Below, in pieces: positions 15,594 through 46,428 of a DNA stretch of 64,000 bases; position 1 is the stretch's first letter; the number at the start of each line of letters is the position of its first letter. Position numbers and translations under genes: made by a program. The stretch is from Candidatus Micrarchaeia archaeon (lineage in GTDB: Archaea > Micrarchaeota > Micrarchaeia > Anstonellales > VGKX01), in the NCBI GenBank assembly GCA_041650395.1, contig JBAZLG010000003.1, positions 182,917 to 246,916 on the forward strand, read 5' to 3'. Under the pieces are notes generated by a model, which did not search any database, had not been told where the DNA came from, and saw nothing but the letters and a program-made list of their open reading frames with translations.

Positions 15594-16050
15594 TTATGAT
15601 TTGAATGTTTGATAATCTTTAACTTAAGTAAAAAATTAAATCACCCTATTTCAACTATTACTTTTTTTTTAAATCATTTAGAGATTTCTTGTTTAATACT
15701 CAGAAAAAATCGAATATACAAATTAGCTTTCATAGGCGTTTATGTTTTATTGCCATAGCAACTATGGGCGAACCTCAAAGCAAATAAACGTGCGGAAAGG
15801 AGCAAATCAAGCGCGTAGGGCATTTTGGCCATATTCATTTTTCATCACTAACGGCGATTATAATTACCCGTCAAATATCACTTTGGCACTTCAGACCGTC
15901 CTCTCTCTGCACATTAATCCCAAATTCTCCATGAAGACTAATTGCATCTCTCTACTTCAATAAGAGCATGAAATGCCTCGCTTTTGCTCTCATTCTCGTT
16001 CTCGTCTTTGTCTTCGTCCTGCCTGCGCTGGTGCACGCAGCCTCAAAAAG

Positions 16051-21400: not shown

Positions 21401-23415
21401 AGGTCGACGGAGCCGCCCCTGGAGGTGTTGACCTTGGATACGAGGGCCGCTGCGAACTTGCCCATGTCAAGCCCGGAACCCTGGGAATTGGCTTTGCTGA
21501 CAAAGCTTCCCATGGTTTTTTGAATTTCATCAAATGCCTTTGACTGGGCAGTAAGGGTTTTTGCCGCAGCAAGGTCGGAGTAGAGTTTGGCGAATTCCTT
21601 GTCAAGGGCGCTTAGTTTCCCCTGGACGGCCTTGCTCGATACTGCTGCGATATAAGCCTGCCTTTGGGCATCCAGGATATTGCGTTCCAGAGACATGAAT
21701 TGTTTCCTGTCGGATGCGCTCATGGAACGAATCAGGTTCCTCTCGTCGCCTGCAAAAATCTCAAGGCTTTTGAGTTTGCGCTCGTATTGCTTTTGATTAA
21801 GCGAACCGCTGTCAAGCTTGCCCTTCAAGTCCTTCTTTAATGCCTCAATCTTGGCTCTCTCCGCATCAAGCAGCTTGTTCCTCTCGCCTGAAACCTGTGC
21901 AAGGGCCACGAGTGCAAGCCTTTCCTTCAGGGCCTTCGTGGCGTCGTCAATCTTGCGCCTCAGCTCTACCACCGGGTCCTTGGCGTCTGCCACCTTGCGC
22001 GTCTTGAAGGACTTGCCATCCACAGTTATCCACTCAAACGGGTTGGCGCCATGGCCCTTGAATATGCCCGTGATGAAATGGTCCTTCTTGCCAAGCACTT
22101 TCTTGAATCCCATGCGCTCTGCCATTTCGACGGCAAACTGCCTGCGTATGTCCTTTTTGAGGCCATGGACAGACCTGCGCGAGGCAATGGCGGAAGCTGT
22201 GTAGAGCACGACCTTGTTGACAAGGGGGACCTTGCCAAGCACGTTGCTGTCGCTGTAAATCATCTTGCCTGCGACCTTGTCAAAGCCATAGGCCTTTGAA
22301 TAATACTGTTTTGTCATGAGATGGGAATTGAGCACGCCCGAAAGGTCAGCGGAGTGCAAAAGAGCCGACTGGAGGTTCTTGTCGCCAAGGCCGCCTATCT
22401 GCTTGAGGTAAAGCTCCCTGTTGAGGGCCGCAAGCTCGTATTTGGAATTGACCTTGTTTGCAAGGTAGCGCATGAGCCTGTCGAGAAGGCCCGTGTCTTT
22501 TACTTTTTCGAGTGCTATCCGCCTTAAAAGGGCCGCCTTTGCGACGTCGGACAGGTTGCTTTGCATGACCTTGTTGACCAGGTTGCGCTTCCCTGCCTCC
22601 TTGCCAAGAAGCATGGCAACGCGGGCATTTGCAAGCCTTAATGCCGCCGACGCCTCGCGAATCTGGCGCTTGTTAAGCCTTAGTGCCATAAGCAGGTTGG
22701 TGCCGACAGTAACCTTGTGCATCTTCGCCTTTTTGCCCTTTGGCAGCCTCGGGGTGGTAATGTCGAAAAGAGACAGGGGGTTCCTGCCGGAATAATACAT
22801 GGAAGCTATGAGAAGCCCTATTATCAGGGATATGGGGAAACAGGCTACTATGTTCGCCGGGTCTGAAACCAGGTTTGCAATTGAGGTGCCTATGGCATTG
22901 ACCCCGACATTGTTCTGGTCGCACACTATTATCGACGAGTCAGCAGGCAGCCTCTTGGGGGCCATATTGTTGCCCGCGTAGGAGACATAGACGGACTTGC
23001 ACGTGCCTGCGAGGCTTGAAGTGCCGATGGTGCATTTTGCCACGCCGTTGGAATCAGTGACGAGGTTCTCGCAGCCCGATATTGCTGCTCCAGTCGAGGG
23101 GTCGTCAAAGTGGAAGTGCAGGGTCTCGCCTGCAAGGGGCAAGACGTCAAATGTCGCAAAGCCGTAAGAGTTTGAAGACGGGTCGCCTGTGCCAGTTGTC
23201 AGGTATTGCTTGTCGTTTTGGAAATCCTGCGAATTGAGCAGGTCAAGTGACGATACATTGACAAAAGTCGCGGCTGCAGTTATCTGGTAGCTTGAAGAAT
23301 TGTAATACAGGCTGATGGTAGTCCGCCCGCATATGTCGCATGGGACATTCTGCCCGAAAGAGGGGTAGAGCAGCAAAGTCAAGACTAAAAGCCCAATTAT
23401 CTTATGTCCCTGCAT
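18451..23415 (-). CDS. Giant (about 1654 aa) membrane protein with signal peptide, Cys/sequon-rich ectodomain, one TM, a very long coiled-coil-rich region and a C-terminal zinc ribbon (CPSCGRALALGTGECPNC)
   Basis: Start set at internal Met 23415 (MQGHKIIGLLVLTLLLYPSFG signal peptide), because the track ORF runs into the leuS 3' end. A TATA-like tttaaaataaag lies about 30 nt upstream on the minus strand. Confidence 0.6.
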   Translation of the reverse strand: MQGHKIIGLLVLTLLLYPSFGQNVPCDICGRTTISLYYNSSSYQITAAATFVNVSSLDLLNSQDFQNDKQYLTTGTGDPSSNSYGFATFDVLPLAGETLHFHFDDPSTGAAISGCENLVTDSNGVAKCTIGTSSLAGTCKSVYVSYAGNNMAPKRLPADSSIIVCDQNNVGVNAIGTSIANLVSDPANIVACFPISLIIGLLIASMYYSGRNPLSLFDITTPRLPKGKKAKMHKVTVGTNLLMALRLNKRQIREASAALRLANARVAMLLGKEAGKRNLVNKVMQSNLSDVAKAALLRRIALEKVKDTGLLDRLMRYLANKVNSKYELAALNRELYLKQIGGLGDKNLQSALLHSADLSGVLNSHLMTKQYYSKAYGFDKVAGKMIYSDSNVLGKVPLVNKVVLYTASAIASRRSVHGLKKDIRRQFAVEMAERMGFKKVLGKKDHFITGIFKGHGANPFEWITVDGKSFKTRKVADAKDPVVELRRKIDDATKALKERLALVALAQVSGERNKLLDAERAKIEALKKDLKGKLDSGSLNQKQYERKLKSLEIFAGDERNLIRSMSASDRKQFMSLERNILDAQRQAYIAAVSSKAVQGKLSALDKEFAKLYSDLAAAKTLTAQSKAFDEIQKTMGSFVSKANSQGSGLDMGKFAAALVSKVNTSRGGSVDLAKTMKVIDNLVNPSSLSKGFDDLANIDKKLSDMMKGFSNKFSFLFGEDVKSVSMSSLTDRKIYSRIYSFNEPGLSGKKKEELAEKTMAEINRQYNDALSGKRKSAVAAMMMDEVAMAMKSGKDYNSAVREAASKTFDRINGAAGKLIGRDGWVDQAMKSGHGLIMNRYAVAAGTDAGTPETKSRARQLAYLDGVTDRVVGVLDSRNQNLYKRLDSTREFNVGLYSGYKNWFDAYGKDDSRYKGKTFEEAYSDVIKRGITGGMLRQGVWVGDIDMKMMPYFAGMSLAEGDKVLNGKLYFNNNGEWVKYKPFKRDHDNAVAMLKNSIQQFSDAVDGGAIKTDAAVKALNLKDKNGNTISTLAQFNGLSRTDKIAAFTSDKLQIREKAPQMGGDNSITRKIANLGLFAEAVMIGGISNKTKSLQDSFATQAANRLILQQYMDAFNSGKYLPKGGNAELPPLSSTEGKKLAERVKNGDIDVQIVLSGLKSKIAGTDPKALEHNVVALQGKYSASAGNPVEHAKIGKQLDEARKSLRDYNMTYDDLRSVQKGIKTASYYDEFLMARKMGRQFQNFYNVMESSQMRDPRFGSSSYGMYQMLATGYHTGQGMYENPNIILGHNLLPGDFINKMSLKVTKPFAQLFGQHTRSFFSLAVGYPVVSDQAQARRPAYGEAVMSLLTPWESFNRFNRYAAPRSRRWGEFSTEEGFSLVNRDVGNDLGGGTKFKAPLPWTFEPMFNNSGEYDRRRFAKDYEDKYGTDIRNPDAPWYKWFFEKGHYSYINRSGYNYFQSGGSMRHYEMFKVHYQNVNKFGPPGMFFKDFEDSYDRMHPRIAQTLNANPELNIYKNLYYRNERANFQRDSTVDVWKRDKLAEFHLGDREHELAGFGFQGRFRPMAFAVPLLWPLFSYKEIKQNVEHHVEATGATKGEAIGKVMGESGKNLLKAPIKPFTKSSHKKLLDRTHFSCPSCGRALALGTGECPNCHYNLSQ

Positions 23416-23656
23416 ATCAGATATAAGATAATTCTTTATTTTAAACCTATGTTTAAGGGGACAAATGCGCCCAATCCATGGCAGGGCGCATGTGTTTAAA
23501 AATGCTTTTGTGTGGAGCGTTACGCATTTAGCCCGAAACCCCGCCCGGCCATGCCGGCCTAAATCAGAAAAAAGCAAAAAACATGCCAAAAAGGCTGCAA
23601 GCGGGTTGCCTGCGCACAGGTAAGCGGCATTTTTAGCCATCATGGCCGCCCGAAAA

Positions 23657-26419
23657 TCAGGCCGAAACAAGTATGGCGCATTTGCCGGGCATGGCATTGC
23701 GTGCCTTCTGCGCCTGTTCCTTGCCTGCCTCCTCTTCAGGGACAAGGCTGACAGGGCAGCCAAATTCCCTTGAATAGAAATCGCACGCGTCCTTGAGAGC
23801 CTCGACCTCGCTTGCGCGCGGGAGGGACTTGTCAAGCCCGCCGATGTTTTTCATGTAGGAAGCCACGAGTTTTGGCACTTCATTGCCATGGCTTCTCAAG
23901 GCAGGGTCTGCCATTGCGGCCTTTATGGCCAAGGAAGGGTTGCGCTCCCTTGCAACTATCGCCTTCAGAACGTATTTCCACTCTGATGCGGCAAACAGGG
24001 TTATGCCTTTGGGCTTGCCTGGAATCTTCAATATGCCAAGAATCTGCTCGATGTCTCCTTTCGACTGGGCCACAAGCTCCTCCATTGCTTCAAGGGACTT
24101 GTCAATGCGCGCCTTTTCCGCTTCAGGGAACGCGGCAAGGGAGACAAACCCTTTCCCGCCGAGTTTCTGCCAGCACTCCTCTGCAAAATGCGGCATTATA
24201 GGCGCTATCGCAGGCACCCAGAGCGAGAAGAACCCGCGCAGGCGCGGCTTGGGGCACCTTTTCATGTACCATGACAGGTCGTTTGAAGTGTTGAAGAAGA
24301 ACTCCTGGCCAAGCTCGCGAAGAGAGAGAGAATCGTAAAGTGCGGGGGCGTTTGCCACGCGCTCGTGCAGCCTGGACATGAGCCATCTTTGTATGAGCGA
24401 GCCCTCGCCTGAATCGCCGGGCGTTTCAGCGCACGCCATGTCAAGAAGCGCAGTCAACTGCCTAAGCCGCGCGGCGACGCCGTTAGCCGCAGTCTGGGAA
24501 AAGTCAGAGTCCTCCTTAAGTTCCGCGCCATTGACCACGGAAAAGCGGACAACGTCCGCGCCGTACTGGCCGATTGCCTTTCTCAATGGCAGGATGTTTC
24601 CCATGGACTTTGACATTTTCTTGCCGTCCATTGTGACAAAGCCGTTTGCGACAATCTGTTTTGGCCAGCCGGACTTGGGGAAAATGGCTACATGGTTGAA
24701 TATGAAGAATGCCAGGTGGTTGTAAATCAGGTCTGCGCCTGAATGCCTTGAATCGAGAGGGTACCAGTAGAGGAATTCCTTCCTTGCGGATTCCATTTCA
24801 GCTGACACCTGCCCGCCCGCCGGCTTCACGCCGAAAAACGCATAGTCGAAGAACTCGTCATTGGCTTTCTCAACCGGCATCGCTTTTACTATATGGGCAA
24901 TAGTGTAGAACGCCATGTAGATTGTGGAATCTGAAAGGGACTCGATTATCTGGGCAGTGTCAAAGGGCAGTTTGGTGCCAAGCCCCTGCGCGCGGCTGCA
25001 CGCCTTTTTTTGCAGCCAGTCGAGCGTATAGTTCAGGTCAGCCCTGGACTTTTCAGGCAGTATTGACATGGAATCCAGGCACTCGTGCGCGAGTTTTTTC
25101 CATTCAGGGTCTCCATAGTCTATGAACCACTGGCCTGTGACGTTTTTCACAACAATGCGCGCGCCGCACCTGCAAAAGACAGGCGAATTGGCTATTTCAT
25201 GGAACTTGAGCGCGAACCCCTGCTCCAGCAATTCCTTTTTCACTTCGTCCTTTGCTATCGAGACCTTCATTCCCTTGAACTTGCCAACTGCCATGATGCC
25301 TTCGTGGGCCTCTTTCCTGTATATTTCCTTTGTGGCTTCCTCGGCCCTGGGGTCGTTTTGGTCCTTGACGCCCATCTGTTCCACGATTTCCTTTGCGGGG
25401 AACTCGCCAAATCCTGCCAGTGAAATGACGTTTTTCATGGTTATTTCCGGCAGGTTGGCGTCGCGAAGCGCGAGATAGTCGTAAGGCGCGTGGGCAGGCA
25501 CGCTCATTACAATGCCCGTCCCGTGCGCCGGGTCGACGAAAGTCGCGGATATGATAGGGACCTTCTCGCCTGTGGCAAGGTTGGTAGCCTTTGACCTTGA
25601 AAGCCTGTCAAACCCGATTTCCTCGATGACTTTCAAGCCCTCGAACTGGTTTGAGAAATATTCGACCTGGTTTGTCGAAATGTAATAAGTTGAGCCCGCA
25701 AACGACACCTTGGCATATTTGGCGTCGGGGTGCGCCCAGATGTTTGTCACGCCATAGACCGTTTCGGGCCTGTAAGTGCTTGCGAGCAGGAACCCGTCGC
25801 CATACGCGAACTTGACAAGGGTTACCTCCTCAAGCGTAGGGTCGACGTCCCCCCTGGTGTCGTGCGCGGATACGGAATTGTTGTCCGCCGGGCACCACGG
25901 GACCGGGTGCGAGCCTTTCTTTATGTAGCCCTTTTTCTCAAGCATCCTAAACTGCCATTCAATGAACCTGTTGAACGCCGGGTCGTTTGAATAGAACTTC
26001 CTGCGCCAGTCAATCGAGAACCCGATTTCTTTCATGCCAAGCTCTATCTCGTTTGAGAAGTGCATGACAAGGGAAATGGGGTCAGTGAGTTTGGCGGCTG
26101 TATCAGCGGGTATGCCGTAAATCTTGTCAAAAACGCCGAGTATGTCCGGGTCTTTTTGCGCAATCCGCTTTGCCATGGCGAGTATGGGCGTGCCCGTGAC
26201 GTGGAATCCCATGGGGAAAAGCACGTTGAATCCTTTCATGCGCTTGTATCTCGCGTAGATGTCGGTAGTGGTGTAAGTCCTCGCATGGCCGATGTGCTGG
26301 GGCGAATTGGGGTATGGGAACGCCGCTGTAAGGTAGAATTTGGGCATGCTTGAAGGGGAAGGGTTGAAGATGCCCCCGTCCGCCCATTTTTTCTGCCAAG
26401 TCAAAGCTATCTCGTCCAT
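23657..26419 (-). CDS. leuS: Leucyl-tRNA synthetase (archaeal type)
   Basis: Class I aaRS signatures: a HIGH-like PNSPQHIGHARTY region and KMSKSMGN. About 920 aa with an editing-domain-sized insertion. Confidence 0.9.
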   Translation of the reverse strand: MDEIALTWQKKWADGGIFNPSPSSMPKFYLTAAFPYPNSPQHIGHARTYTTTDIYARYKRMKGFNVLFPMGFHVTGTPILAMAKRIAQKDPDILGVFDKIYGIPADTAAKLTDPISLVMHFSNEIELGMKEIGFSIDWRRKFYSNDPAFNRFIEWQFRMLEKKGYIKKGSHPVPWCPADNNSVSAHDTRGDVDPTLEEVTLVKFAYGDGFLLASTYRPETVYGVTNIWAHPDAKYAKVSFAGSTYYISTNQVEYFSNQFEGLKVIEEIGFDRLSRSKATNLATGEKVPIISATFVDPAHGTGIVMSVPAHAPYDYLALRDANLPEITMKNVISLAGFGEFPAKEIVEQMGVKDQNDPRAEEATKEIYRKEAHEGIMAVGKFKGMKVSIAKDEVKKELLEQGFALKFHEIANSPVFCRCGARIVVKNVTGQWFIDYGDPEWKKLAHECLDSMSILPEKSRADLNYTLDWLQKKACSRAQGLGTKLPFDTAQIIESLSDSTIYMAFYTIAHIVKAMPVEKANDEFFDYAFFGVKPAGGQVSAEMESARKEFLYWYPLDSRHSGADLIYNHLAFFIFNHVAIFPKSGWPKQIVANGFVTMDGKKMSKSMGNILPLRKAIGQYGADVVRFSVVNGAELKEDSDFSQTAANGVAARLRQLTALLDMACAETPGDSGEGSLIQRWLMSRLHERVANAPALYDSLSLRELGQEFFFNTSNDLSWYMKRCPKPRLRGFFSLWVPAIAPIMPHFAEECWQKLGGKGFVSLAAFPEAEKARIDKSLEAMEELVAQSKGDIEQILGILKIPGKPKGITLFAASEWKYVLKAIVARERNPSLAIKAAMADPALRSHGNEVPKLVASYMKNIGGLDKSLPRASEVEALKDACDFYSREFGCPVSLVPEEEAGKEQAQKARNAMPGKCAILVSA

Positions 26420-26494
26420 GCTGGAATTTAACCCCAGACAATTTATAAAGATAATATAAGATATATCAAATGTTTAGCAATCGCAGGGTTTCAC
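26420..26494. promoter_or_regulatory. AT-rich bidirectional promoter region between divergent leuS and the membrane-paralog operon (tttataaagataatataagatatatc)
   Basis: TATA-like boxes sit 25-50 nt upstream of both divergent start codons. This is the only AT-rich stretch in the vicinity. Confidence 0.45.
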
Positions 26495-27697
26495 ATGGTC
26501 TTAGAACAGGCATTGCCATTGCTCCAATCAGGCATTGGAGCCGTATTCACAACCAATTTTATCAATCTGGGCTGGATGGGCATAGCAGTCCTCGCCCTGA
26601 TGATTTCCGTCTTCACGGTGGCGCTTGCGTACATCGCGGGCGAAGGCCTCTCCATGCCGTCGCTGAAGGCATGGTCGAAGACGGAGTTGTACGAACTCCT
26701 GCTCTCGGCAATGATAATTGGCTCCACAGGCGCGGGCCTCGCGTTCTTGGCCATAGTGTCCTATGGCATCACCGGCAGCCCGAGCATATTCGCCCCCGGC
26801 GAGCTCTACCTGTCCCAGATGACTTCGACCTCTACAAGCATCTATGCCTCGCTTTTGCAGCACGAGGCCATAATCGGCATACTCTCGACTTCGGGCATAT
26901 CCATCTACGCGCCGGAGGTCATTATCTCCCTCGCGTCGTTTAGCATGGTCCCAAGCGCGGGGCTAAGCGTAGTCAGCGACGCGCTCATCACAATCATAGA
27001 CGCCATCGGCATATCAATCGTGGCGTTCATAGGCCAGAAGGTCATATTGCAGTTTTTCAAGGACACCATGCTCAACTTCTTCATGCCGGCAGGCATCGCG
27101 CTTCGCGCCTTCCCGATATCAAGAAGGCTCGGCTCGAGCCTGATAGCCCTTGCCCTGGCGTGCTATTTCGTATACCCGCTCTCACTCGCATTCAACCAGG
27201 CGATTTTCGAGAACGCCAAGCCGATAAACTACGAGCATTACCAGAACCTGATAGACGTGTGCTCGCAGGACAAGGGCGACATACTAGGCAGCAGCAATTC
27301 CAATTACGACGCGTACATGCAGGGCATCAGCCAGGCAACAACCGACGCGGAAAACCAGTATTACGCAAGCCCGCCGCCTGCGCAGGACGAGAGCCTGTGG
27401 AACACGCTCACGTCGCCTTTCAAGTGGGTCTACAACCAGGCCAAATTCGCCATCGACGCCATCGTGACCCTGACAAAATACGCGCTGCAATATTCGTTTT
27501 TCCTTGTCGACGTCAGGCGGGCCACTGCGGTCATTTACATTTCCGTCATTGACCAGATTACGCCGGCCATGCAGTTCCTCGTCTATGCCGTCATGTCCCC
27601 GATAATAAGCATTGTGATAACGGTGACCGCGTACAGGAGCATAGCCTCATCCCTAGGCGGGGAAGAGGAGATATTCGGGCTTGGGAAGCTGATTTGA
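26495..27697 (+). CDS. Paralog 1 of 6: polytopic membrane protein of an unrecognised family (LRxFPxTRxxGGxLIAxAxGxY motif; C-terminus ...GLGKLI)
   Basis: Shares an N-terminal KxELY(Q/E) segment, the central IALRAFPISRRLGSSLIALALACYFVYP motif, and the C-terminal hydrophobic tail with the five downstream genes. Confidence 0.65.
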   Translation: MVLEQALPLLQSGIGAVFTTNFINLGWMGIAVLALMISVFTVALAYIAGEGLSMPSLKAWSKTELYELLLSAMIIGSTGAGLAFLAIVSYGITGSPSIFAPGELYLSQMTSTSTSIYASLLQHEAIIGILSTSGISIYAPEVIISLASFSMVPSAGLSVVSDALITIIDAIGISIVAFIGQKVILQFFKDTMLNFFMPAGIALRAFPISRRLGSSLIALALACYFVYPLSLAFNQAIFENAKPINYEHYQNLIDVCSQDKGDILGSSNSNYDAYMQGISQATTDAENQYYASPPPAQDESLWNTLTSPFKWVYNQAKFAIDAIVTLTKYALQYSFFLVDVRRATAVIYISVIDQITPAMQFLVYAVMSPIISIVITVTAYRSIASSLGGEEEIFGLGKLI

Positions 27698-28656
27698 TGG
27701 GCTGCACCGTAGGATTGTCGCAAACCGCCCTTGCAGCCACAGGGCCCATATTCGCCACCAGCCTTGCCGCCATAATATTCATACTCGCCCTTGTCTTCAT
27801 GTTCTCGCAGCTTTTCAGGAAGCCAGAATGGGAAGGCGCCGTTAAGATGGAGCTTTACCAGGTCGTGGTTTCGGTAATCATCTTCATATCCATCTACGCG
27901 CTCGTGGGATTCAGCTGCGAGATATCGCAGGGCTTCAACAGCGGAGTGGATTATTTCACCACAGCGCAGAACTACCTCAACCTCATGATTTACAGGGTGA
28001 CCATACCGGAGCTTTTCAAGCTCGAGACTCTCGCCACTCTCATGCAGTACGCGGGGAACATGATAAGCAAGTACGGCGCCGGCGCGTGGGGCTATAACTT
28101 CCCGCTGTTCCCCGGAGCGCCTATAATCGAGGCCGCGGTCAATTTCGTTGTCTTTGTCATCTCGCCTTTCACGGCAAGCCTGATGGTCCAGGTATTGATA
28201 CTCCAGGCGATACAGGGCATAGCCCTGACAATAATGCTTCCCGCCGGGGTCCTGCTGCGCGTGTTCACGCCCACAAGGGACGCAGGCTCTTTCCTGATAG
28301 CCTCGGCATTCGCGTTCTACGTGATTTACCCCATGACTTACGTGATGCACGCGAACGTCATGGATTACGTCATATCCAATAGCTCGAGCCTTACCTGGAA
28401 GCAGGAATTCAACCAGTACATCTCGGGGCAGAACGTCAATGGCATACAGACGGCGCCCGCGTCGCCGCAAAGCCAGCAGCAGCTTCTGGACCTGGTGTTC
28501 CTGCGGGGGCTATTGGACCTCGACTTGCTGTTCCAGCCGCTTGAGAGCCTTTCATACACCATACTTGCCGCCATTTTCCTGCCGGCGCTGTCAATGATAA
28601 TCACTACCACGTTCATCAAGGGGACCTCAAAGTTCCTCTCGCAAAAGCTCGAATGA
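27697..28656 (+). CDS. Paralog 2 of 6 of the membrane protein family
   Basis: VLLRVFTPTRDAGSFLIASAFAFYVIYP, with KMELYQVV and a C-terminal membrane tail. The ATG overlaps the paralog 1 stop (TGATG). Confidence 0.65.
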   Translation: MGCTVGLSQTALAATGPIFATSLAAIIFILALVFMFSQLFRKPEWEGAVKMELYQVVVSVIIFISIYALVGFSCEISQGFNSGVDYFTTAQNYLNLMIYRVTIPELFKLETLATLMQYAGNMISKYGAGAWGYNFPLFPGAPIIEAAVNFVVFVISPFTASLMVQVLILQAIQGIALTIMLPAGVLLRVFTPTRDAGSFLIASAFAFYVIYPMTYVMHANVMDYVISNSSSLTWKQEFNQYISGQNVNGIQTAPASPQSQQQLLDLVFLRGLLDLDLLFQPLESLSYTILAAIFLPALSMIITTTFIKGTSKFLSQKLE

Positions 28657-30233
28657 AAAACACGGGCAACAGGAGAAACAAAAAAGAGATGCAAAAAATG
28701 GACAGGAAAAGCCTGGCAATGATAGCCGCAATCGCAGTCGTGGTTGCGATATCGGGCTGCACGGCAATGGCGGGCACGCCGGCATACAAGACAGCGGAGC
28801 TTACAAACTTCGCGTCCTCATGGCAGGTCCTTGCGGTACTCGCGGTAATGATATCCCTGTTCTTCGTGGCCATAGGATACATGGCGGCGAGCCTGACCTC
28901 CGACGAGCCGTTCAAGGCCAAGGTCAAGTCGGAATTCGTCCAGGTGTTCTATTCAGCCCTCATAATCGTTTTCGCCATTGCCCTGTTCGCATCCATTGAC
29001 AGCCTTGCAAAAAGCGTGGCGCTAATAGGCGTGGACCCCGACTGGACAGCGCAGGTCAATGCGCTTTGCAAGCTTCCAAGCGACCCGGCATACCAGGGGC
29101 CCTGCCACATAGCAATCGCGCGGAATTACCTCGACATACTGTTCCAGACCGCAAAGCAGGCAAACCTGCGCATAGCAATGATAAACTCCATGGTGGCATG
29201 GCTCTCAAGCATGAGCGTTGAGTTCAGGCAGCTTGTGGACCCGTCGCCAAACTTCGTAGTCCAGCCGTTTGCAGGCATGGGCGTAATGTCAGAAACGCTT
29301 GGGACCGTATTTGACACCCTTGTCAAGCTGATGATGTTTGTCAGGTTCCAGCAGCTTTTCCTCGACCTGATTTACACGTCCATATTCCCCCTGTTCCTCT
29401 TCACGGGCGTGATACTAAGGACTTTCTTTTTCACGCGCAAGCTTGGCGGGCTGATGATTGCCATAGCCCTCGGCATGTTCATCACCTTCCCGGCGATGTA
29501 CGCGTTCACGGGTTATATACTGTACAAGACCACTGATACCACCTACAACGCGCTTCTCTTCAATGTGTCCTACGACCCCACGCAGACTGCGGCGATAGGG
29601 CAGGACAGCGGCTATGACGCTTACAAGGACGTGGGGCAGGACCCGTATTACCAGGCGGCAAGCCCGCCCGCAGTGGGGGCGTCCAATAAAATCAGCTTTG
29701 GCACGTGCCTGTCAAACCTGAAATACATGTTCACAAGCAACCAGACAATAACTGCCGCATGGCCAGGCGGGTTCGGGGGCGTGACGCTTGAGAACAGGTA
29801 TGATTCTACCGACAGGGTCAAGATATACGCTCTCGGCACGAGCAATGCCGACGAGATGAATTTCACGGACGTCAAGGGCGACAAGTACATGGTCAGGCCG
29901 GTAGTCGGCGCGCAGGGGGACCAGCTTTACATGGTATACGCCAGGTATGACGGCACGGGCGGGACCACTTTCGCGCCGCTTGAGATTATCAATTCCATAG
30001 TCAGCACTGTCACGTGGTATTTCAAAAACGACGTTTCAAGCTCGTTCGAGGCCATGGTGGCAGGAGATGACATAATAGGCTTCAACGGCCTGATTGACCA
30101 GACGTCAAGGCTGTTCCTGTTCACGCTCGTCATGCCTTTCGTCTCCCTGATGGTGACGATAGCAAGCATAAAGGTCGCGTCCCCGCTCCTTGGCGGCGAC
30201 ACCGAAATCGCGGGCCTTACAAGGATTATATAG
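28653..30233 (+). CDS. Paralog 3 of 6 (largest, 526 aa) of the membrane protein family
   Basis: VILRTFFFTRKLGGLMIAIALGMFITFP, with KSEFVQVF and C-terminus ...AGLTRII. ATGA overlap with paralog 2. Confidence 0.65.
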   Translation: MKNTGNRRNKKEMQKMDRKSLAMIAAIAVVVAISGCTAMAGTPAYKTAELTNFASSWQVLAVLAVMISLFFVAIGYMAASLTSDEPFKAKVKSEFVQVFYSALIIVFAIALFASIDSLAKSVALIGVDPDWTAQVNALCKLPSDPAYQGPCHIAIARNYLDILFQTAKQANLRIAMINSMVAWLSSMSVEFRQLVDPSPNFVVQPFAGMGVMSETLGTVFDTLVKLMMFVRFQQLFLDLIYTSIFPLFLFTGVILRTFFFTRKLGGLMIAIALGMFITFPAMYAFTGYILYKTTDTTYNALLFNVSYDPTQTAAIGQDSGYDAYKDVGQDPYYQAASPPAVGASNKISFGTCLSNLKYMFTSNQTITAAWPGGFGGVTLENRYDSTDRVKIYALGTSNADEMNFTDVKGDKYMVRPVVGAQGDQLYMVYARYDGTGGTTFAPLEIINSIVSTVTWYFKNDVSSSFEAMVAGDDIIGFNGLIDQTSRLFLFTLVMPFVSLMVTIASIKVASPLLGGDTEIAGLTRII

Positions 30234-30238
30234 TTCGC

Positions 30239-31507
30239 ATGGGAAAAATGAAAACAAAGGCAAAAGTTGGTAGGATGGCAAGGAAAAGCGGAATGAAAAA
30301 AGGGAAGGCGTCCCCTGTTGCGTTAATTGCAGCCATGGCATTCCTTGCCCTGCTTGCCACCCCGGCATTCGCCTCCATCATACCCGACCTGGGGCTCACG
30401 ACCGACGGCCTGTTCTCTAACCTCTACGCCGTGGTTTCAGGCCCGGGTGCAGACCTGTACAGCTGGGTGCCGCTGACCTCGCTCACTCTCGCGACCGCAA
30501 TACTCCTGATAGGCCTCGCCTACATGGCGGGCAGTTTCCTGCAAAACCCAAAGATAATCGCATGGGCAAAGGAAAACCTGTTCCAGGCGGGGGGCTCGGC
30601 AGTGCTGATAATCGGGTTCTTCTTCCTCCTGACAACGGTCAACGGGATTTCGCATGCCACGTTCTGCTCGCCTTCAGACCCTGCGGACTGCAACCACATA
30701 TACAAGGCCAAGGAATACGCCACGGTCGTAGGCAAGACGCTTGTCGCAAACTTCATATCCCTGAACATATTCAACATAGCGCTTAGCGTCTATGGCACTC
30801 TGCAAATCAACATCAGGCCGGGCGGGTTTGGCCTGTCCTTCTCAATTGCGCCCATGTTCAGGCCCATCATGGACGCAATGGGGCTTATCATGAACTTCCT
30901 GACTGCCGCATGGGCGGAATGGGTAGCCCAGACATTCCTGCTGGACTTCATTGAAAAGCAGATGCTTGCCATTTTCCTTCCGATAGGCATACTCCTGCGC
31001 TCGTTCCCGTTCACAAGGAGCGCGGGCGGCGCCCTGCTAGCGCTCGTGTTCGGGCTTTATTTCGTATATCCGGTCACGCTTGTGGCGAACAAGGCTATCG
31101 CGGACGCGCATTACGGCGCCTACGTGGACGGCAGCGGGAACAGCTGCACGTTCAGTTTCCTTGTGCCATGCCTTTACCAGCTGCAGGTGGGAGGCTCGAT
31201 AACGGAGTTCATACACAGCTCCGGCATCGTGGCAGGAAGCGTGGGCAGCATCGGACTGGCAGGGTACCTGATAGGCATCAAGGCATACGGCCTGCTCGCG
31301 CTTGCTGCGCCGTTGTTCGCCGCCCTCGTGCTAGGCGCGCTTGCAATCATGCTCAAGAACTTCGTGATGCAGCTCTCGTACATCATACTGGTACTGTCGC
31401 TTATGCTGCCGATATTCAACCTGTTCATAGTGATGACTTCAATAAGGGAAATGGCAAAGTTCCTCGGCTCCGACCTGAACATATCGGCGCTTTTGAGGCT
31501 GATTTGA
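30239..31507 (+). CDS. Paralog 4 of 6 of the membrane protein family (with a cleavable-looking signal peptide)
   Basis: ILLRSFPFTRSAGGALLALVFGLYFVYP, with WAKENLFQ and C-terminus ...SALLRLI. Confidence 0.65.
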   Translation: MGKMKTKAKVGRMARKSGMKKGKASPVALIAAMAFLALLATPAFASIIPDLGLTTDGLFSNLYAVVSGPGADLYSWVPLTSLTLATAILLIGLAYMAGSFLQNPKIIAWAKENLFQAGGSAVLIIGFFFLLTTVNGISHATFCSPSDPADCNHIYKAKEYATVVGKTLVANFISLNIFNIALSVYGTLQINIRPGGFGLSFSIAPMFRPIMDAMGLIMNFLTAAWAEWVAQTFLLDFIEKQMLAIFLPIGILLRSFPFTRSAGGALLALVFGLYFVYPVTLVANKAIADAHYGAYVDGSGNSCTFSFLVPCLYQLQVGGSITEFIHSSGIVAGSVGSIGLAGYLIGIKAYGLLALAAPLFAALVLGALAIMLKNFVMQLSYIILVLSLMLPIFNLFIVMTSIREMAKFLGSDLNISALLRLI

Positions 31508-31520
31508 AAGCGGAAGATTG

Positions 31521-32588
31521 ATGGGAATGGCGCAATTCGCAAACATTGCATTCGACGTATGCCAGAATTTCGGCAGCTTCCAGTCAGGCTTTGCCCCGTG
31601 GCAGGTCAACACGTTCCTTGCCCTGCTTGTGACAACCCTGTTCATAGCCATAATATACATGTTTTCGCACTTTTACAGGAACCCGCAGATGTCGGCATGG
31701 GCAAAGTTCGAGCTTTTCCAGGTAATCGTCACAGCCGTCATAGCCATAGGCGCAGTGGCGTTCATAGGCGCCACGTGCAGCTTCTCGCCCGGGGTTTTCG
31801 GGCTTACGCCGGACGCGGCGGCGAGGTATTCGGGCCAGACAATGTATTCCGCGGCGCAAAACTACCTTGAATGGCTAAGGACAACCACCCTGCTCTCCTT
31901 CACGGTTTCCTTCGCGGTCAACAGCATGCTTGGCAGGGCGCAGGGCATCACTTGGAACATGAGGCCGACGGGCGTGGGTTTCAGCACCCAGCCGTTCGCA
32001 GGAGTCACGCCCATCAGCGGTTCGGTGAACATACTCATAAACGGCATAACCCTGGCGTTCATGATAACTGTCGCGCAAAAGGCAATACTGAACTACATAA
32101 GCATAGCAATGCTCAACTACCTGCTGCCGCTTGGCATATTCTTCCGCGCGTTCGCCCCGACGCGGCAGTTCGGAGGGGCCATGATAGGCATGGCCATAGG
32201 CATGTTCATATTCTATCCAATGATGCTCGTGTTCAATGACTTTGCCGTGAGGTCGGCGATGGACCAGCTGACAAGCACAGCCACGAACCAGATGCTAAGC
32301 AACTTCAACTCCGGATTCCCGACAGACAAGGCGGGCGCGGAGGCGGCAAGGTCGGATTCGACCTCGAACATACTAAGCGACGCCACGCCCGACGCAGGAG
32401 GCAACATACCGTCCGCGGAAAATTCCTCGATAATGGTGTTCTACGTGATTAGGATAGCGTTCAACGTGTTCGTCGCCTCCGTGGTCCTGGTGGCAATAAA
32501 CTTTGCAGTGCTGATAACGGTCGTAAGGGAACTCTCAAGGATATTTGGCGAGGAAGTGGACGTGTCCTCGCTCACAAGGATGATTTGA
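31521..32588 (+). CDS. Paralog 5 of 6 of the membrane protein family
   Basis: IFFRAFAPTRQFGGAMIGMAIGMFIFYP, with WAKFELFQ and C-terminus ...SSLTRMI. The track start 31518 is TTG and the ATG is at 31521. Confidence 0.65.
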   Translation: MGMAQFANIAFDVCQNFGSFQSGFAPWQVNTFLALLVTTLFIAIIYMFSHFYRNPQMSAWAKFELFQVIVTAVIAIGAVAFIGATCSFSPGVFGLTPDAAARYSGQTMYSAAQNYLEWLRTTTLLSFTVSFAVNSMLGRAQGITWNMRPTGVGFSTQPFAGVTPISGSVNILINGITLAFMITVAQKAILNYISIAMLNYLLPLGIFFRAFAPTRQFGGAMIGMAIGMFIFYPMMLVFNDFAVRSAMDQLTSTATNQMLSNFNSGFPTDKAGAEAARSDSTSNILSDATPDAGGNIPSAENSSIMVFYVIRIAFNVFVASVVLVAINFAVLITVVRELSRIFGEEVDVSSLTRMI

Positions 32589-32589
32589 C

Positions 32590-33579
32590 ATGGCAGACCC
32601 GATAGCTATACTTTCAGGCTCCATTCTGCCCACTTGGGAGCCTTTGATACTGCTTGCGGCGTTTTCCACGTTCATGCTCGTGACCCTGCTTTACATGTTC
32701 GCGCACGTATTCAACCTGCAATCCCTCAAGCAATGGTGCAAGTCCGAATACGCGCAGGTCCTTGTGACCTTCCTGATAGCGATATTCCTCATAGGCCTTG
32801 TGACCCTCGGGCTAAGGGTCGCAACGGAATTCACCGGCTCCGTGATAAGCTCGATAGGGCTGGTAGGCTATCCGACAGGCACTACCTTATGGCCTTTTGA
32901 CATAGCAAAGGCATACGTGAACACCACTGTCCAGTGCTCGACCGAGATGTACAGGTGGATATACCACGTCAACGGCTTTGTCGAGTTCTCCGAGGGAATA
33001 AACATGGACGTCGGAGGCATAGAGCCTGCGATGGCATGGCACCTGTCAGGCCTTGTGGGCATGTTCCACATAATAGAGAGCAGGCTGAGCTATGTCATGA
33101 TGTTCGAGTACGGGTTTTACAGGCTCTTGGAGCTTTTCGAGGCCACGATGTTCACGTTCTTCCTGCCAGTGGGCCTCATACTAAGGACTTTCCCCATGAC
33201 GCGCGGCGTAGGCGGCTTCCTGATCGCCCTTGCAATAGGCGGCTACATAATTTTCCCGCTCTCGGTGGTGGCGATAGTGGCATTGCAGGGCAATGTCGCA
33301 AGCTCGTGCACAGTCAATTTCGCCGCCCTGCCAGGCATACAGACGTGCGGTGATTCGCTCACGGACGCATACCTTGTCCAGGACTACACGAGGCAGAACA
33401 TATCGCTGATATCAAACTACGCCCAACTTGCCGCAAACAAGGTGGCACTCATATATCTCCAGTCGTTCTTCTACCCGCTTGTATCGCTTGTAATACTTTT
33501 CACATTCGTCAGGCAGACGTCAAGCGTAATGGGTGCTGACCTGGCGGAACTGGGCACCGGCCTTGTGAAAATAATATAA
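32590..33579 (+). CDS. Paralog 6 of 6 of the membrane protein family
   Basis: LILRTFPMTRGVGGFLIALAIGGYIIFP, with WCKSEYAQ and C-terminus ...GTGLVKII. One nucleotide separates it from the paralog 5 stop. Confidence 0.65.
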   Translation: MADPIAILSGSILPTWEPLILLAAFSTFMLVTLLYMFAHVFNLQSLKQWCKSEYAQVLVTFLIAIFLIGLVTLGLRVATEFTGSVISSIGLVGYPTGTTLWPFDIAKAYVNTTVQCSTEMYRWIYHVNGFVEFSEGINMDVGGIEPAMAWHLSGLVGMFHIIESRLSYVMMFEYGFYRLLELFEATMFTFFLPVGLILRTFPMTRGVGGFLIALAIGGYIIFPLSVVAIVALQGNVASSCTVNFAALPGIQTCGDSLTDAYLVQDYTRQNISLISNYAQLAANKVALIYLQSFFYPLVSLVILFTFVRQTSSVMGADLAELGTGLVKII

Positions 33580-33624
33580 ACAACGTAGCGGAAGCAATAT
33601 GCAGATACCCAAAAGGTGATTTGA

Positions 33625-34269
33625 ATGCCGGCTCCTCCAAGCACTCCAAGATACTCGACTACCCCGTCGGCTTATGCGAAGCCGCCCGCGGCGACTGCGC
33701 ATTACGCGTCCCCGCCCGCGCCGCCAAAGGCCCCCGCGGGATACGCGGCCGAAGATGGCGGCAGGAAATCCTCGCCCCTCCTCTCAAGGCTCGCATTCGC
33801 GCTCGCCATAATAAGCCTTATGCTGAACGCATACCTTTTCCTTAGCGTCTCGGCCATGAAAAGCGAGGCAAGAGGGCTCATTGACGACCTCGAGGCAATG
33901 AAAAACATCCAGACCAAGGTCACTGTGCCCATAAAGCAGGACATACCCATTCAAAAGGACATCCAGGTGGCAAGCCTGTTCTCAAACAGCGTGGAGATAC
34001 CACTTGAGTTTTCCCTGCCTGTAAACGGAGTAGTTACGGGAATAACGCCGCAGGGCCTGCCCCAGTCGTTCACTTTCTCGGACCAGAAGATTCCCGTGAA
34101 GACAAGCGTGCCTGCCAACATATCCATAGGGGACGGGCAGGGCTCTACAATAAGCATAAACGAGCAGATTCCTATCGACACGAGCCTGACACTCACGGTT
34201 TCCGCAGGAGACGCGTACAAGAGCCAGCTAGACTCGATGATTTCAAGGCTGCAAAAAATAGCGGGGTAA
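33625..34269 (+). CDS. Pro/Ala-rich N-terminus, single TM, beta-rich C-terminal domain. Probably the last gene of the membrane operon.
   Basis: MPAPPSTPRYSTTPSAYAKPP... followed by the LAFALAIISLMLNAYLFLSV TM helix. Same strand, 45 nt after paralog 6. Confidence 0.5.
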   Translation: MPAPPSTPRYSTTPSAYAKPPAATAHYASPPAPPKAPAGYAAEDGGRKSSPLLSRLAFALAIISLMLNAYLFLSVSAMKSEARGLIDDLEAMKNIQTKVTVPIKQDIPIQKDIQVASLFSNSVEIPLEFSLPVNGVVTGITPQGLPQSFTFSDQKIPVKTSVPANISIGDGQGSTISINEQIPIDTSLTLTVSAGDAYKSQLDSMISRLQKIAG

Positions 34270-35026: not shown

Positions 35027-35236
35027 AAGAAAACCAGATAGGATATGCATTGGCGGGTTTAAATCAGCATAGGAAAATACCCAGAGGTTAGAAAGGGCAT
35101 AGAAAGTTTTCTAAGGGGGGTAGGGGGGAAATCAAGGAATCTACATTTCGCCCAGAAGCGAAATGTCAGAAGCATGTCGCAAAGCGACATGTTCTAAACC
35201 GCCAGGGGGGCGCAGCCCCCCTATGAGGTTTGTCTG

Positions 35237-35308
35237 TGGACGAGAGGGGATTTGAACCCCTGGCCTCTTCGTTGCGAACGAAGCGCTCTACCACTGAGCT
35301 ACACGCCC
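35237..35308 (-). tRNA. tRNA-Ala (anticodon CGC), 72 nt, no encoded CCA
   Basis: Reverse complement folds as GGGCGUG acceptor with the G3:U70 Ala identity pair. D GCUC/GAGC. Anticodon arm CUUCG-UUCGCAA-CGAAG. T arm AGGGG-UUCAAAU-CCCCU. Confidence 0.85.
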
Positions 35309-35469: not shown

Positions 35470-36567
35470 TCAGAATATGGAACTGGCGGACTCCATTGCA
35501 AACATTCCCTTCTGGGATGCCGCGCCATCGCTCGACTCCTTCGGCTTGCCGAATATGCTCGGGGACTGCTTCAGTCCAGTGACTATGGATGTCACTGTCA
35601 CGAGGTCGCCCATGTCCGGCACGAGCCTTGCCCCTATCTTCACGTTGGCGTTGGCGTCGAAGGATTCGGAAACCTTGTCGCCTATCGTTATCGCCTCGCC
35701 AAGCGTGAGGGAGGTGCTGCCCTCTACGTGCAGGAGCGCGCCAGTGGCCCCTTCATAGGAAACGTCAAGCAGCGGGTGGGAAAGTGTGGATGTCACCACC
35801 TGCTCGACCCTGTCGGAGCCCTTGCCTTCTCCTACCGAGATGAGTGCGACGCCGCCGCCCGTCATGACGCTTTTTACGTCCGCATAGTCGACATTCATGA
35901 GGGACGGGAACATGATGGTGTCCGCAATGCCCTTGACTGCGCGAGCTGTGATGGCGTCCGCCAGGTTGAAGGCGTCGTTTATCGGGATGTTGGGCGCGTA
36001 ATTGACAAGCCTGTTGTTGTCTATGACAATCACTGTGTCCGACGCCTCGACAAGCTGCTCTAGGCCCCACTGCGCTTTTTTTATCCTCGCCCTTTCAAGC
36101 GCGAACGGGTAAGTGACTATAGAGACCACGACAGCGCCCGCGTCGCGGGCCATTTTTGCCACAATGGGCGCAGCGCCAGTGCCGGTGCCGCCGCCCATGC
36201 CAGCGGTCAGGAAGACTATCTCGTTCTCGCCGAGGGCCTCTGAAAGCTTTTCCCTGGACGCTTCGGCGCACTTCTGCGCTATTTCCGGGAAGCCGCCCGC
36301 GCCAAGGCCCTTTGTGATAGACGCGCCTATGAGAACCTTCTTCTGGGACTCGATTGTCTTGAGCTGAAGATAATCAGTATTGATCGCGATTGTCGTTGCG
36401 CTCTTTATGCCCGACCTTGCTATGCGGTTGACTGTATTGCAGCCGCCGCCGCCAACGCCCACTACGGCTATCCTGACCGAATCGTTGCTCATCAGGCCCT
36501 CGTCGGGCTTGGGGGCAACTGCGGCGCCCGTGTTTTCCAGCGCCGAATTCACTATACCCTCCAGCAT
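35470..36567 (-). CDS. ftsZ: FtsZ/tubulin-family cell division GTPase (paralog A)
   Basis: GGGTGTGAAP tubulin signature plus the NTDxxAL... and VGVGGGGCNTVNR N-terminal GTP-binding loops. Confidence 0.9.
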   Translation of the reverse strand: MLEGIVNSALENTGAAVAPKPDEGLMSNDSVRIAVVGVGGGGCNTVNRIARSGIKSATTIAINTDYLQLKTIESQKKVLIGASITKGLGAGGFPEIAQKCAEASREKLSEALGENEIVFLTAGMGGGTGTGAAPIVAKMARDAGAVVVSIVTYPFALERARIKKAQWGLEQLVEASDTVIVIDNNRLVNYAPNIPINDAFNLADAITARAVKGIADTIMFPSLMNVDYADVKSVMTGGGVALISVGEGKGSDRVEQVVTSTLSHPLLDVSYEGATGALLHVEGSTSLTLGEAITIGDKVSESFDANANVKIGARLVPDMGDLVTVTSIVTGLKQSPSIFGKPKESSDGAASQKGMFAMESASSIF

Positions 36568-36675: not shown

Positions 36676-37737
36676 TCAGATGATTTCTATGTCATCCGCG
36701 TATGACTTCGCCTTTGGCTCTTCCTCGTAGCTTGAGCCGCCGACCGAGGCGCCCTTCACGCCCGTGACTATCGCGACAATTTCCAGTTTGCCGTCATAGC
36801 CGGGTATGAGCCTTGCGCCCCATTTGACGTTCGCCTGCGCGTCCATCTTCTCGGTGATGATTTCACCGGCTTTGATGGCGTCGCCAAGCGTCAGGTCGGA
36901 GCCTCCGGAGATGTGGATGAGTGCGCCGTTCGCGCCTTCAAAGTCCACGTCAAGCAGCCTGTTCTTCAGGACGCCTTCCGCAGCTCCCCTTACCTTGTCG
37001 TTGCCCTTGCCTTCCCCTACGGATATGAAACCGACTCCGCCGCCCTGCATGATAGAGCGAACATCTGCAAAGTCGATGTTTATGAGTGAGGGTTGCGTGA
37101 TTGTCCAGACAAGCCCGCCAATCGCCTTGGCAAGTATCTCGTCTGCAACAGAGAACGCCTCGTTCATAGGCAGGTTTGGAACTAGTTTCACCAAGCGGTT
37201 GTTGTCAAGGATGATGACCGAGTCGCAGGACTTCTTCATCTTGGATATGCCCTCGTCGGCCTTCGCGCGCCTCGCGCGCTCAAGTGCGAACGGGTACGTA
37301 ACCATTGCGACTACTATCGCGCCCTGTTCCTTGGCTATTTCCGCTATTATCGGTGCCGCGCCAGTGCCTGTGCCACCGCCCATGCCGCAGCATACGAACA
37401 CGAGGTGCGCCCCTTCAAGCTCCTTCTGGAGAAGTGGCCTGTCTACCTCTGCGGCCTTCGAGCCCGTCTCCGGGTAGCCGCCCGCGCCCAATCCCTTGGT
37501 AATGGACCTGCCAATCAGGACCTTCTTCGCCTTCTCGTGGATGAGGTTCAGGTGCTGCTTGTCGGTGTTGACCGCCACCAGCTCCGTGCCCTTCACGCCC
37601 GCGCGAATGAGCCTGTTGACTGTGTTGTTTCCGGCACCGCCTACGCCTACTGTCACTATCTTAATCTGGTCCGAGCCGAATGATTCTGCCTGAGCGGGCT
37701 CACGCTCACCTAGGACTGACTTTACAAGACTTTCCAT
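36676..37737 (-). CDS. ftsZ: FtsZ/tubulin-family cell division GTPase (paralog B)
   Basis: GMGGGTGTGAAPIIAEIAKE, VGVGGAGNNTVNRL. In tandem with paralog A, as in the FtsZ1/FtsZ2 pairs of many Euryarchaeota. Confidence 0.9.
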   Translation of the reverse strand: MESLVKSVLGEREPAQAESFGSDQIKIVTVGVGGAGNNTVNRLIRAGVKGTELVAVNTDKQHLNLIHEKAKKVLIGRSITKGLGAGGYPETGSKAAEVDRPLLQKELEGAHLVFVCCGMGGGTGTGAAPIIAEIAKEQGAIVVAMVTYPFALERARRAKADEGISKMKKSCDSVIILDNNRLVKLVPNLPMNEAFSVADEILAKAIGGLVWTITQPSLINIDFADVRSIMQGGGVGFISVGEGKGNDKVRGAAEGVLKNRLLDVDFEGANGALIHISGGSDLTLGDAIKAGEIITEKMDAQANVKWGARLIPGYDGKLEIVAIVTGVKGASVGGSSYEEEPKAKSYADDIEII

Positions 37738-44692: not shown

Positions 44693-44697
44693 ACATC

Positions 44698-46346: not shown

Positions 46347-46428
46347 TCTATCGTCACAGAAAACTTATGACTTCTAAGGTTATAAATGCGTGCATTTGAA
46401 TATAATTTTTATATATTTAAGTTTCTCT

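Follow-up and report, generated by a model that had tools for sequence, protein, structure and literature searches.

We report here on a cassette of six consecutive genes encoding paralogous, polytopic membrane proteins, which occupies positions 26495 to 33579 of a 64,000-nucleotide (nt) stretch of contig JBAZLG010000003.1 (assembly GCA_041650395.1, forward-strand positions 182,917 to 246,916) from a Candidatus Micrarchaeia archaeon; this whole stretch is referred to below as the window. Among the DPANN archaea, Micrarchaeota form one of the major lineages, and to our knowledge no candidate genes have been available for the organisation of their envelope, the anchoring of their S-layer or their exchange with host cells. 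The cassette provides a concrete and conserved target for such questions about the Micrarchaeota envelope.

The six-gene cassette and its protein family

A preliminary description of this DNA, made from the letters alone, had noted six open reading frames (ORFs) joined by five very short junctions, and both the coordinates and the spacings were found as claimed: from gene 1 to gene 6 there are a 4-nt overlap, a second 4-nt overlap, a 5-nt gap, a 10-nt gap and a 1-nt gap, and the whole cassette comprises about 2,350 codons. The genes and the spacer in front of them are listed here, with lengths in amino acids (aa) and with the evidence on which each entry is based.

26420-26494, no strand assigned: AT-rich spacer of 75 base pairs (bp) between the divergent LeuRS gene and gene 1; read from the sequence
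26495-27697, plus strand: paralog 1, 400 aa; ORF, translation, alignment of the six paralogs, and match to the family hidden Markov model (HMM) at E 1e-85
27697-28656, plus strand: paralog 2, 319 aa from the ATG at 27697 (320 aa from an alternative TTG at 27694); ORF and alignment
28653-30233, plus strand: paralog 3, 526 aa, or 511 aa from the NCBI start 15 codons later (WC506_06010); ORF, alignment and hydropathy
30239-31507, plus strand: paralog 4, 422 aa; ORF, alignment and hydropathy
31521-32588, plus strand: paralog 5, 355 aa from the ATG at 31521 (356-aa ORF from 31518); 100% identical to NCBI WC506_06020
32590-33579, plus strand: paralog 6, 329 aa, with the C-terminal tail ...GADLAELGTGLVKII; ORF, alignment and family HMM

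The AT-rich region that had been pointed out upstream of the array corresponds to the 75-bp spacer; it contains the TATA-box-like element TTTATAAA at 26442-26449, as read directly from the sequence, and is presumed to be the promoter of the cassette. The gene on the other side of the spacer was identified as LeuRS from its translation.

The six proteins are indeed paralogs, as had been proposed: they are pairwise 22-25% identical, their alignment contains invariant K, G, R, F, R, G and P columns, and the family HMM matches every one of the six ORFs with E values between 1e-73 and 1e-100. The signature that they share can be written as E...G-x3-R-x-F-x2-T-R-x2-G...P. A single frameshifted gene as the source of the six ORFs is ruled out, as each ORF contains a complete copy of the domain.

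The search for the array in related archaeal genomes, which the preliminary description had suggested, revealed the six-gene cassette in Micrarchaeota of several orders. One genome per GTDB species was scanned with the alignment of the paralog-5 orthogroup as query, a choice that favours genomes whose paralog 5 has a canonical tail, and this yielded 80 loci. Nearly all of these are labelled Micrarchaeota or Micrarchaeia, and the labels span several orders, including Anstonellaceae, Burarchaeum, Bilamarchaeum and Fermentimicrarchaeum limneticum, the last with a complete genome; among the remaining labels some are unspecific archaeal ones, two read "ainarchaeum" and one reads "Woesearchaeota". 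When ORFs were called in all loci and searched with the family HMM, exactly six tandem paralogs on the same strand were present in every one of the 69 loci with enough flanking DNA. The shorter arrays (n=14) all start no more than 250 nt from the end of a contig, and in one locus a gene is split. Two metagenomic contigs carry the same arrangement.

The positions within the array, assigned in 68 loci by best BLAST hit to the paralogs of the window, follow the order 1-2-3-4-5-6 in 63 loci; the other five, all from the Fermentimicrarchaeum clade, read 1-2-3-5-5-6. The paralog 1 orthogroup holds position 1 in 63 of the 68 loci. Identity is 33-37% within orthogroups and 18-21% between them, the latter being nearly equidistant with slight affinities of 1 with 3, 4 with 5 and 2 with 6. 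Because the orthogroups are about equally distant from one another and yet so much more similar within, the comparison places the six-fold duplication before the divergence of the sampled Micrarchaeota lineages, with no copy lost, added or moved since. The junctions between the genes have a median of 1 nt, 91% of the 345 junctions fall within -60 to +30 nt, and all lie on one strand; junctions of about 1 nt would fit a co-translation of the six proteins in equal amounts.

The Fermentimicrarchaeum clade comprises six loci (L051, L052, L059, L070, L077 and L080), and in five of these the position-4 paralog is so strongly diverged that it best matches paralog 5 of the window. In all six, two further genes of about 270 aa, paralogous to each other and with no Pfam match, lie directly downstream on the same strand.

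The family extends far beyond the cassettes analysed here. An exhaustive search of 1.84 billion representative proteins with a profile of the six paralogs detected 3,121 family representatives, clustered at 50% identity, at E <=1e-3, of which 2,536 remained at E <=1e-10; homolog searches based on a word index gave 6-10 relatives only, and the size of the family became visible through the exhaustive profile search. All named members are called "hypothetical" or "uncharacterised" and come from Micrarchaeota, "Parvarchaeota" or uncultured archaea, one of them being labelled Gugararchaeum, and paralog 5 itself (WC506_06020) is annotated as a hypothetical protein of a Candidatus Micrarchaeia metagenome-assembled genome, where it lies on a contig of 375 kb. 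The longest members exceed 1000 aa and reach 1,313 aa, and the large insertions in members of 570-1313 aa contain no Pfam domain.

The preliminary description had been unable to assign the proteins to any family, and our searches agree with this. Pfam gave no match for the six paralogs, and no Pfam family matched more than one of 95 family members. NCBIfam, PHROGs and PADLOC gave nothing above noise for the six proteins, and profiles built from the six paralogs and from the 95 sequences found zero matches among PDB sequences at E up to 10. Foldseek with the paralog-5 model against PDB returned nothing significant, with no E value below 0.3. No family relatives were found among the viral contigs of IMG/VR, so that a phage or anti-phage identity finds no match in PHROGs, PADLOC or IMG/VR, and a full-text literature search found no description of the family or the cassette. 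The findings that had been named in advance as speaking against the claim, namely homology to TrbL/VirB6, FlaJ/TadC or ABC-2 proteins, or an origin of the genes as fragments, did not materialise, as no such model matches and the paralogs are complete. Specifically, the cassette proteins have no Pfam or NCBIfam match to T2SSF (PF00482; FlaJ/TadC/PilC), and the FlaJ/TadC/PilC proteins have cytoplasmic helical-bundle domains, whereas the large loops of the cassette proteins are predicted to be extracellular. Likewise, there is no Pfam or NCBIfam match to ABC-2 or other permeases, and neither the cassette nor its conserved neighbourhood contains an ABC ATPase. The cassette proteins constitute a new family of five-transmembrane (TM) proteins, although HHpred or a fold comparison at the scale of the AlphaFold database might still link it to VirB6/CedA or to another family.

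Subunit topology and conserved residues

Confident AlphaFold2 models were obtained for paralog 5 (mfa0d5809d507; predicted local distance difference test, pLDDT, 86.3; predicted template modelling score, pTM, 0.79) and paralog 2 (m73dbf4410a0a; pLDDT 88.5, pTM 0.81), with alignments of 95-104 sequences. Both have a common all-helical architecture, in which TM1 and TM2 comprise about 31-39 residues each and the first large loop contains, besides a small beta-hairpin, a helix of some 35 residues. TM3, TM4 and TM5 are 50, 49 and 45 residues long in paralog 5 and 49, 35 and 40 residues long in paralog 2. Judged from these helix lengths, and not from the model coordinates, TM3 to TM5 would project several nanometres past the membrane.

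Hydropathy gives five membrane segments. In 410 sequences, which come from 69 loci and all six orthogroups, the Lys plus Arg content is 14.9% in the TM1-TM2 loop and 19.9% in the TM3-TM4 turn, and it is 4.7% at the N-terminus, 4.8% in large loop 1 and 5.4% in large loop 2. An extra hydrophobic, signal-peptide-like segment is present at the N-terminus of 61 of 69 position-4 orthologs. Hydropathy, the positive-inside rule and the signal-peptide-like segments on paralogs 3 and 4 together lead to a predicted topology with the N-terminus outside, five TM helices and the C-terminus inside, which places both large loops on the outside of the cell. This supports the earlier view that the loops are extracellular, to which the conserved signal peptide on paralog 4 adds. 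The further claim that the loops are rich in N-glycosylation sequons was not borne out, since each protein contains only 0-3 N-x-S/T sites. The ecto-loops vary within loci from about 30 to 190 residues.

Paralog 1 has five TM helices, a large second ecto-loop and the C-terminal tail ...GGEEEIFGLGKLI. Paralog 2 is the minimal subunit, with the shortest ecto-loops and with neither the C-terminal tail nor the conserved Lys of the TM1-TM2 loop. Paralog 3, which has the largest ecto-loops, begins with a signal or lipobox-like segment (ISGC) and ends in the tail ...GGDTEIAGLTRII; paralog 4 has a signal-peptide-like N-terminal segment and the tail ...GSDLNISALLRLI. In paralog 5 the core motif LPLGIFFRAFAPTRQFGG is encoded at 32124-32177, and the tail reads ...GEEVDVSSLTRMI.

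Conservation was counted over the same 410 sequences, and residue numbers refer to the 356-aa ORF of paralog 5. Six residues, E65, G206, R210, R216, G219 and P234, are 92-100% conserved. The central L-R-x-F-P-x-T-R-x-x-G-G motif, which the preliminary description had pointed out, is real, with R210, R216, G219 and P234 at 97-100%. K63, L209, F212, T215 and G344 are conserved at 76-81%. E65 lies at the cytoplasmic start of TM2, G206, R210, R216 and G219 lie in the TM3-TM4 turn and P234 lies in TM4; all conserved residues map on or near the cytoplasmic face.

A C-terminal box had been described for all six paralogs. It is present in five, but paralog 2 is without it in every locus. Orthogroups 1, 3, 4, 5 and 6 share an acidic/hydrophobic C-terminal tail with the pattern [LF]-G-[GAE]-[DE]-x-[DEN]-[IVL]-x-x-L-x-[RK]-[LIM]-[IV], the last residue of which is in most sequences the C-terminus of the protein; orthogroup 2 ends about 15 residues earlier. 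In orthogroup 2 only, K63 is replaced by N or S. At the level of the aligned sequences, the six-subunit set therefore consists of five similar members and one odd member, paralog 2. Since the two features are missing from the same subunit, a joint function of the tail and K63 is probable.

Genomic surroundings of the cassette

Neighbouring genes were clustered in the 69 loci, taking three ORFs of 120 aa or more from either flank of the cassette. The divergent upstream gene is LeuRS in 18 loci, the window included, and AspRS in 23. Downstream and on the same strand, a PIN_5 ribonuclease gene is found in 29 loci and SecD/SecF in 11, and further conserved neighbours are SurE, TYW2, an RNA ligase and a giant membrane protein. 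The housekeeping surroundings, together with the lack of viral relatives, argue for a core cellular role of the cassette rather than for a mobile element.

Two features follow gene 6 in the window.

33625-34269, plus strand: gene 7, 214 aa; ORF with a Pro-rich N-terminus, one TM helix and an ectodomain of about 140 aa
34281-34325, plus strand: GGCC-TTCC-GGCC hairpin followed by a T-rich run, between the convergent genes for gene 7 and diphthamide synthase; read from the sequence

Gene 7 starts 45 nt past gene 6. As a GGTGAT ribosome-binding site is present and no T-run follows gene 6, it is probably co-transcribed with the cassette, and the hairpin with its T-rich run is the likely end, a putative terminator, of the transcription unit. 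The existence of this seventh gene, already noted in the preliminary description, is supported by an ortholog with 63% identity at the same position in the closest relative (L085), but the gene is not a general part of the system: phmmer, run on the ORFs of 120 aa or more from 85 fetched loci, found no match elsewhere. Pfam, NCBIfam, PHROGs and PADLOC gave nothing above noise for gene 7. A role as a general seventh subunit is ruled out, as the gene is seen only in the closest relative, and it looks like a lineage-specific accessory outside the conserved cassette.

The giant membrane protein is encoded in the window by an ORF at 18451-23835 on the minus strand, which comprises 1794 aa from a TTG codon and has its likely start (MQGHKII...) near 23415. 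The protein combines a signal peptide and a small ecto-domain with a single TM helix; its cytoplasmic region of about 1,300 residues is rich in Lys and partly coiled-coil, and a zinc ribbon (CPSCG...CPNC) forms its C-terminus. Searches of Pfam, NCBIfam, PHROGs, PADLOC and PDB sequences gave nothing above noise for it. Its homologs adjoin the cassette, upstream and divergent, in 12 loci of the clade closest to the window, where the adjacent ORFs either overlap nominally, by as much as 130 nt, or are separated by up to 114 nt. In the window itself, LeuRS sits between the giant gene and the cassette. The giant protein may be a clade-specific partner of the cassette. It was also considered as an S-layer protein, which is ruled out as most of it is predicted to be cytoplasmic. 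A 450-aa ORF at 17102-18454 on the minus strand, which overlaps the giant ORF by 4 nt, resembles a secreted Cys-rich lipoprotein with many sequons.

Several other features of the window were recorded. Two tandem FtsZ paralogs at 35470-36567 and 36676-37737, both on the minus strand, adjoin a tRNA-Ala(CGC) gene at 35236-35308, also on the minus strand, and the block of diphthamide synthase followed by two FtsZ genes is shared with L085. A low-GC island at 43880-47244, with a GC content of 0.34 compared with about 0.54 for the window, contains genes for a HEPN-domain protein, a 196-aa RelA/SpoT-like nucleotidyltransferase, a 352-aa protein without Pfam domains and a Whirly-like protein, and is probably a foreign toxin or defence islet. 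A second low-GC island, at 12000-16000 (GC 0.31-0.38), contains a gene for an SOS-response-associated peptidase (SRAP) at 12068-12733 and, at 12858-15593, an ORF of 911 aa for which Pfam gave no match. Lastly, a protein with an SLT_2 lytic transglycosylase domain (E 1.5e-26) is encoded at 7790-8746 on the minus strand; this archaeon is without murein of its own, and the protein may represent a cell-wall hydrolase of the bacterial type that the DPANN lineage has acquired.

A proposed envelope complex and its relation to known systems

Fixed, non-interchangeable paralogs in equal number are a mark of hetero-oligomeric rings, and independent surface proteins would be expected to vary in copy number; for both reasons we infer that the six proteins belong to one complex, and the physical assembly, ring shape, stoichiometry and function given below are to be read in the same way. 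In MCM2-7, Rpt1-6 and CCT1-8, there are as many fixed paralogs as positions in the ring. Multiple Hcp paralogs encoded in tandem have been reported to form heterohexamers (PMC13035841). The preliminary description had ended with the idea of a dedicated membrane machine, and this idea is strengthened by the conserved number and order of the six genes and by the near-zero junctions, but it is not proven. We propose, as the most likely reading, that the cassette encodes an obligate hetero-oligomeric membrane complex with a role as an envelope conduit or platform. The complex itself is well supported by the comparison of loci, and complex and role taken together we regard as a serious possibility though still short of an even chance.

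In this proposal, the six genes would give six different subunits of one integral membrane complex, in the simplest case a ring of pseudo-sixfold symmetry in which each paralog is present once. Its long outward helices would make up a turret or stalk directed toward the S-layer, with the variable ecto-domains inserted at two sites of the stalk, and paralog 2, being without the Lys and the tail, would turn the assembly into a 5+1 asymmetric ring with a seam or a unique vertex. The conserved Arg/Glu/Lys face and the five tails might bind each other or a cytoplasmic partner. With its membrane base and outward turret, such a ring would serve the Micrarchaeota as a housekeeping envelope conduit or platform, and cell-surface material, be it S-layer and surface proteins or material exchanged with a partner cell, would be passed through it or anchored on it. 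If the six proteins form one ring, this would be a rare prokaryotic case in which six fixed paralogs occupy the positions of a membrane complex, and it would provide a defined particle to look for by cryo-electron tomography (cryo-ET) and proteomics of the two cultured Micrarchaeon-host systems.

Several points weigh against this proposal. No ATPase, pilin or substrate gene is linked within about 10 kb of the cassette in any clade. The six paralogs could sit in a complex of another stoichiometry or act in sequence, and a homo-hexameric p6 S-layer has no obvious need for six different anchors. The predicted fold has no significant solved relative, and the idea of a conduit is drawn from its architecture alone.

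A more specific version of the proposal would make the cassette a Micrarchaeota-specific, asymmetric 5+1 hetero-hexameric channel that acts as a gateway for partner-cell exchange, and we would give this no more than a slim chance. In ARM-1, a barrel-shaped complex has been seen by cryo-ET where host nanotubes enter, beneath a sixfold S-layer (PMC11329633), and a gateway could, for example, form the membrane base of this docking complex, or it could be an import route for host material in cells that depend on others for lipids and nucleotides. Against a purely symbiotic role, the cassette is also present in orders that have been proposed to be metabolically self-supporting (PMC8561730).

Three other explanations have to be weighed against the proposed complex. 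According to one, the cassette proteins are a passive membrane anchor or stalk of the Micrarchaeota S-layer, which determines how wide the pseudo-periplasm is and keeps the sixfold lattice attached to the cytoplasmic membrane. It has been suggested that the sole hydrophobic segment of the Micrarchaeon S-layer protein may be removed with the signal peptide that it forms, and that a distinct protein serves as the stalk (bioRxiv 10.1101/2021.04.28.441871); the S-layer of ARM-1 has sixfold symmetry, with densities that reach the membrane (PMC11329633). The conservation of the cassette over several orders in a housekeeping context, the long helices that by their lengths would point outward, the variable ecto-domains and the lack of a linked ATPase would all be in agreement with such an anchor. 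However, a lattice of identical subunits does not explain the need for six non-interchangeable anchors or the 5+1 asymmetry, the strongest conservation is found on the cytoplasmic side and in the tail rather than on an outer, ligand-binding face, and no S-layer gene is linked to the cassette. We therefore think this explanation unlikely, although it deserves to be kept in mind. It has also to be asked whether the six genes encode independent surface-exposed membrane proteins, such as receptors, adhesins or single-subunit transporters, possibly of a lipid-interacting, TTYH-like kind, that are merely linked in an operon. Ecto-loops that are hypervariable in length are typical of surface proteins under diversifying pressure, and TTYH1-3 were the top Foldseek matches for paralog 5. 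TTYH1-3 have five TM helices, with the N-terminus outside and the C-terminus inside, and their TM helices extend into an outer helical bundle; they resemble the cassette proteins in topology and in having long TM helices, which in the cassette proteins would be compatible with an extracellular bundle. These matches are not significant, however (Foldseek E 0.37-0.45, TM-score at most 0.20), there is no Pfam match to PF04906 and no shared motif, and TTYH proteins are eukaryotic and form homo-dimers or tetramers. In addition, copy number and order normally vary among independent proteins, whereas here six genes are kept in a fixed order across deep divergence, the junctions of about 1 nt suggest stoichiometric synthesis, and the 5+1 pattern of tail and Lys would be hard to explain. 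Independent proteins consequently seem to us very doubtful.

The remaining explanation holds that the cassette proteins are extremely diverged subunits of the VirB6/CedA type, so that the cassette would provide, multiplied into six paralogs, the channel through the inner membrane for a type IV secretion system (T4SS) or for a Ced- or Ted-like apparatus that transfers DNA or protein. Archaeal VirB6-like proteins (CedA/TedA) are very divergent and are not recognisable by BLAST (PMC9905601), which leaves room for such a relationship. The resemblance is one of architecture: VirB6/TrbL proteins, among them CedA/TedA and TrwI of plasmid R388 (PDB 7o3v chain F), resemble the cassette proteins in having the N-terminus outside and the C-terminus in the cytoplasm and in crossing the membrane five times, with a large outer loop after TM2, and the hydropathy of TrwI gives the same succession of TM1-TM2, large outer loop, TM3-turn-TM4 and TM5 that was inferred for our family. 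Both have long helices and a vaguely similar P-x9-P-T-x-R-F turn after TM3, where TrwI GPLFILALIWQPTHRFF and family LPLGIFFRAFAPTRQFG resemble each other without gaps at equivalent places of the TM3-TM4 turn. Tandem VirB6 paralogs are found in Rickettsiales and would be a precedent for an array of this kind. On the other hand, hhalign of the 95-sequence family profile with 24 TrwI-type VirB6 sequences, a narrow set at >=50% identity that includes no CedA/TedA profile, gave a probability of 0.14% and an E value of 0.42, and the motifs were not aligned in either local or global mode. PF04610 (TrbL), which is matched by all TrwI relatives, is matched neither by the six paralogs at E up to 1 nor by the 95 members at E up to 0.01, and Foldseek against PDB returned nothing significant. 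Among the conserved neighbours in the 69 loci there is no VirB4/CedB-like ATPase, VirB2-like pilin or other T4SS gene, a negative that covers ORFs of at least 120 aa near the cassette, with small pilin-sized ORFs and the rest of the genomes left unscreened. The chromosomal housekeeping setting and the lack of viral or mobile relatives also do not fit. VirB6 forms a homo-pentameric ring and is mobile, whereas the cassette encodes six fixed, different subunits on the chromosomes of several orders of a phylum. Membership of the cassette proteins in the VirB6 family is therefore not supported, as what is shared is topology, which alone does not define a family, and we consider a VirB6-type channel quite improbable.

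The proposed hetero-oligomeric complex finds its nearest parallels in assemblies to which it is likened by organisation, and no sequence or fold match of the cassette proteins to MCM2-7, Rpt1-6, CCT1-8 or FliP/FliR was found, so that the following comparisons are analogies only. In the first three of these systems, as may be the case for the cassette, the number of non-interchangeable paralogs corresponds to the number of positions in the ring. In the FliP5-FliR1 core of the type III export gate, a single odd subunit, FliR, breaks the symmetry of five similar ones, much as paralog 2 might do in a 5+1 ring, and the export gate is, like the predicted fold of the cassette proteins, built of long hydrophobic helical hairpins.

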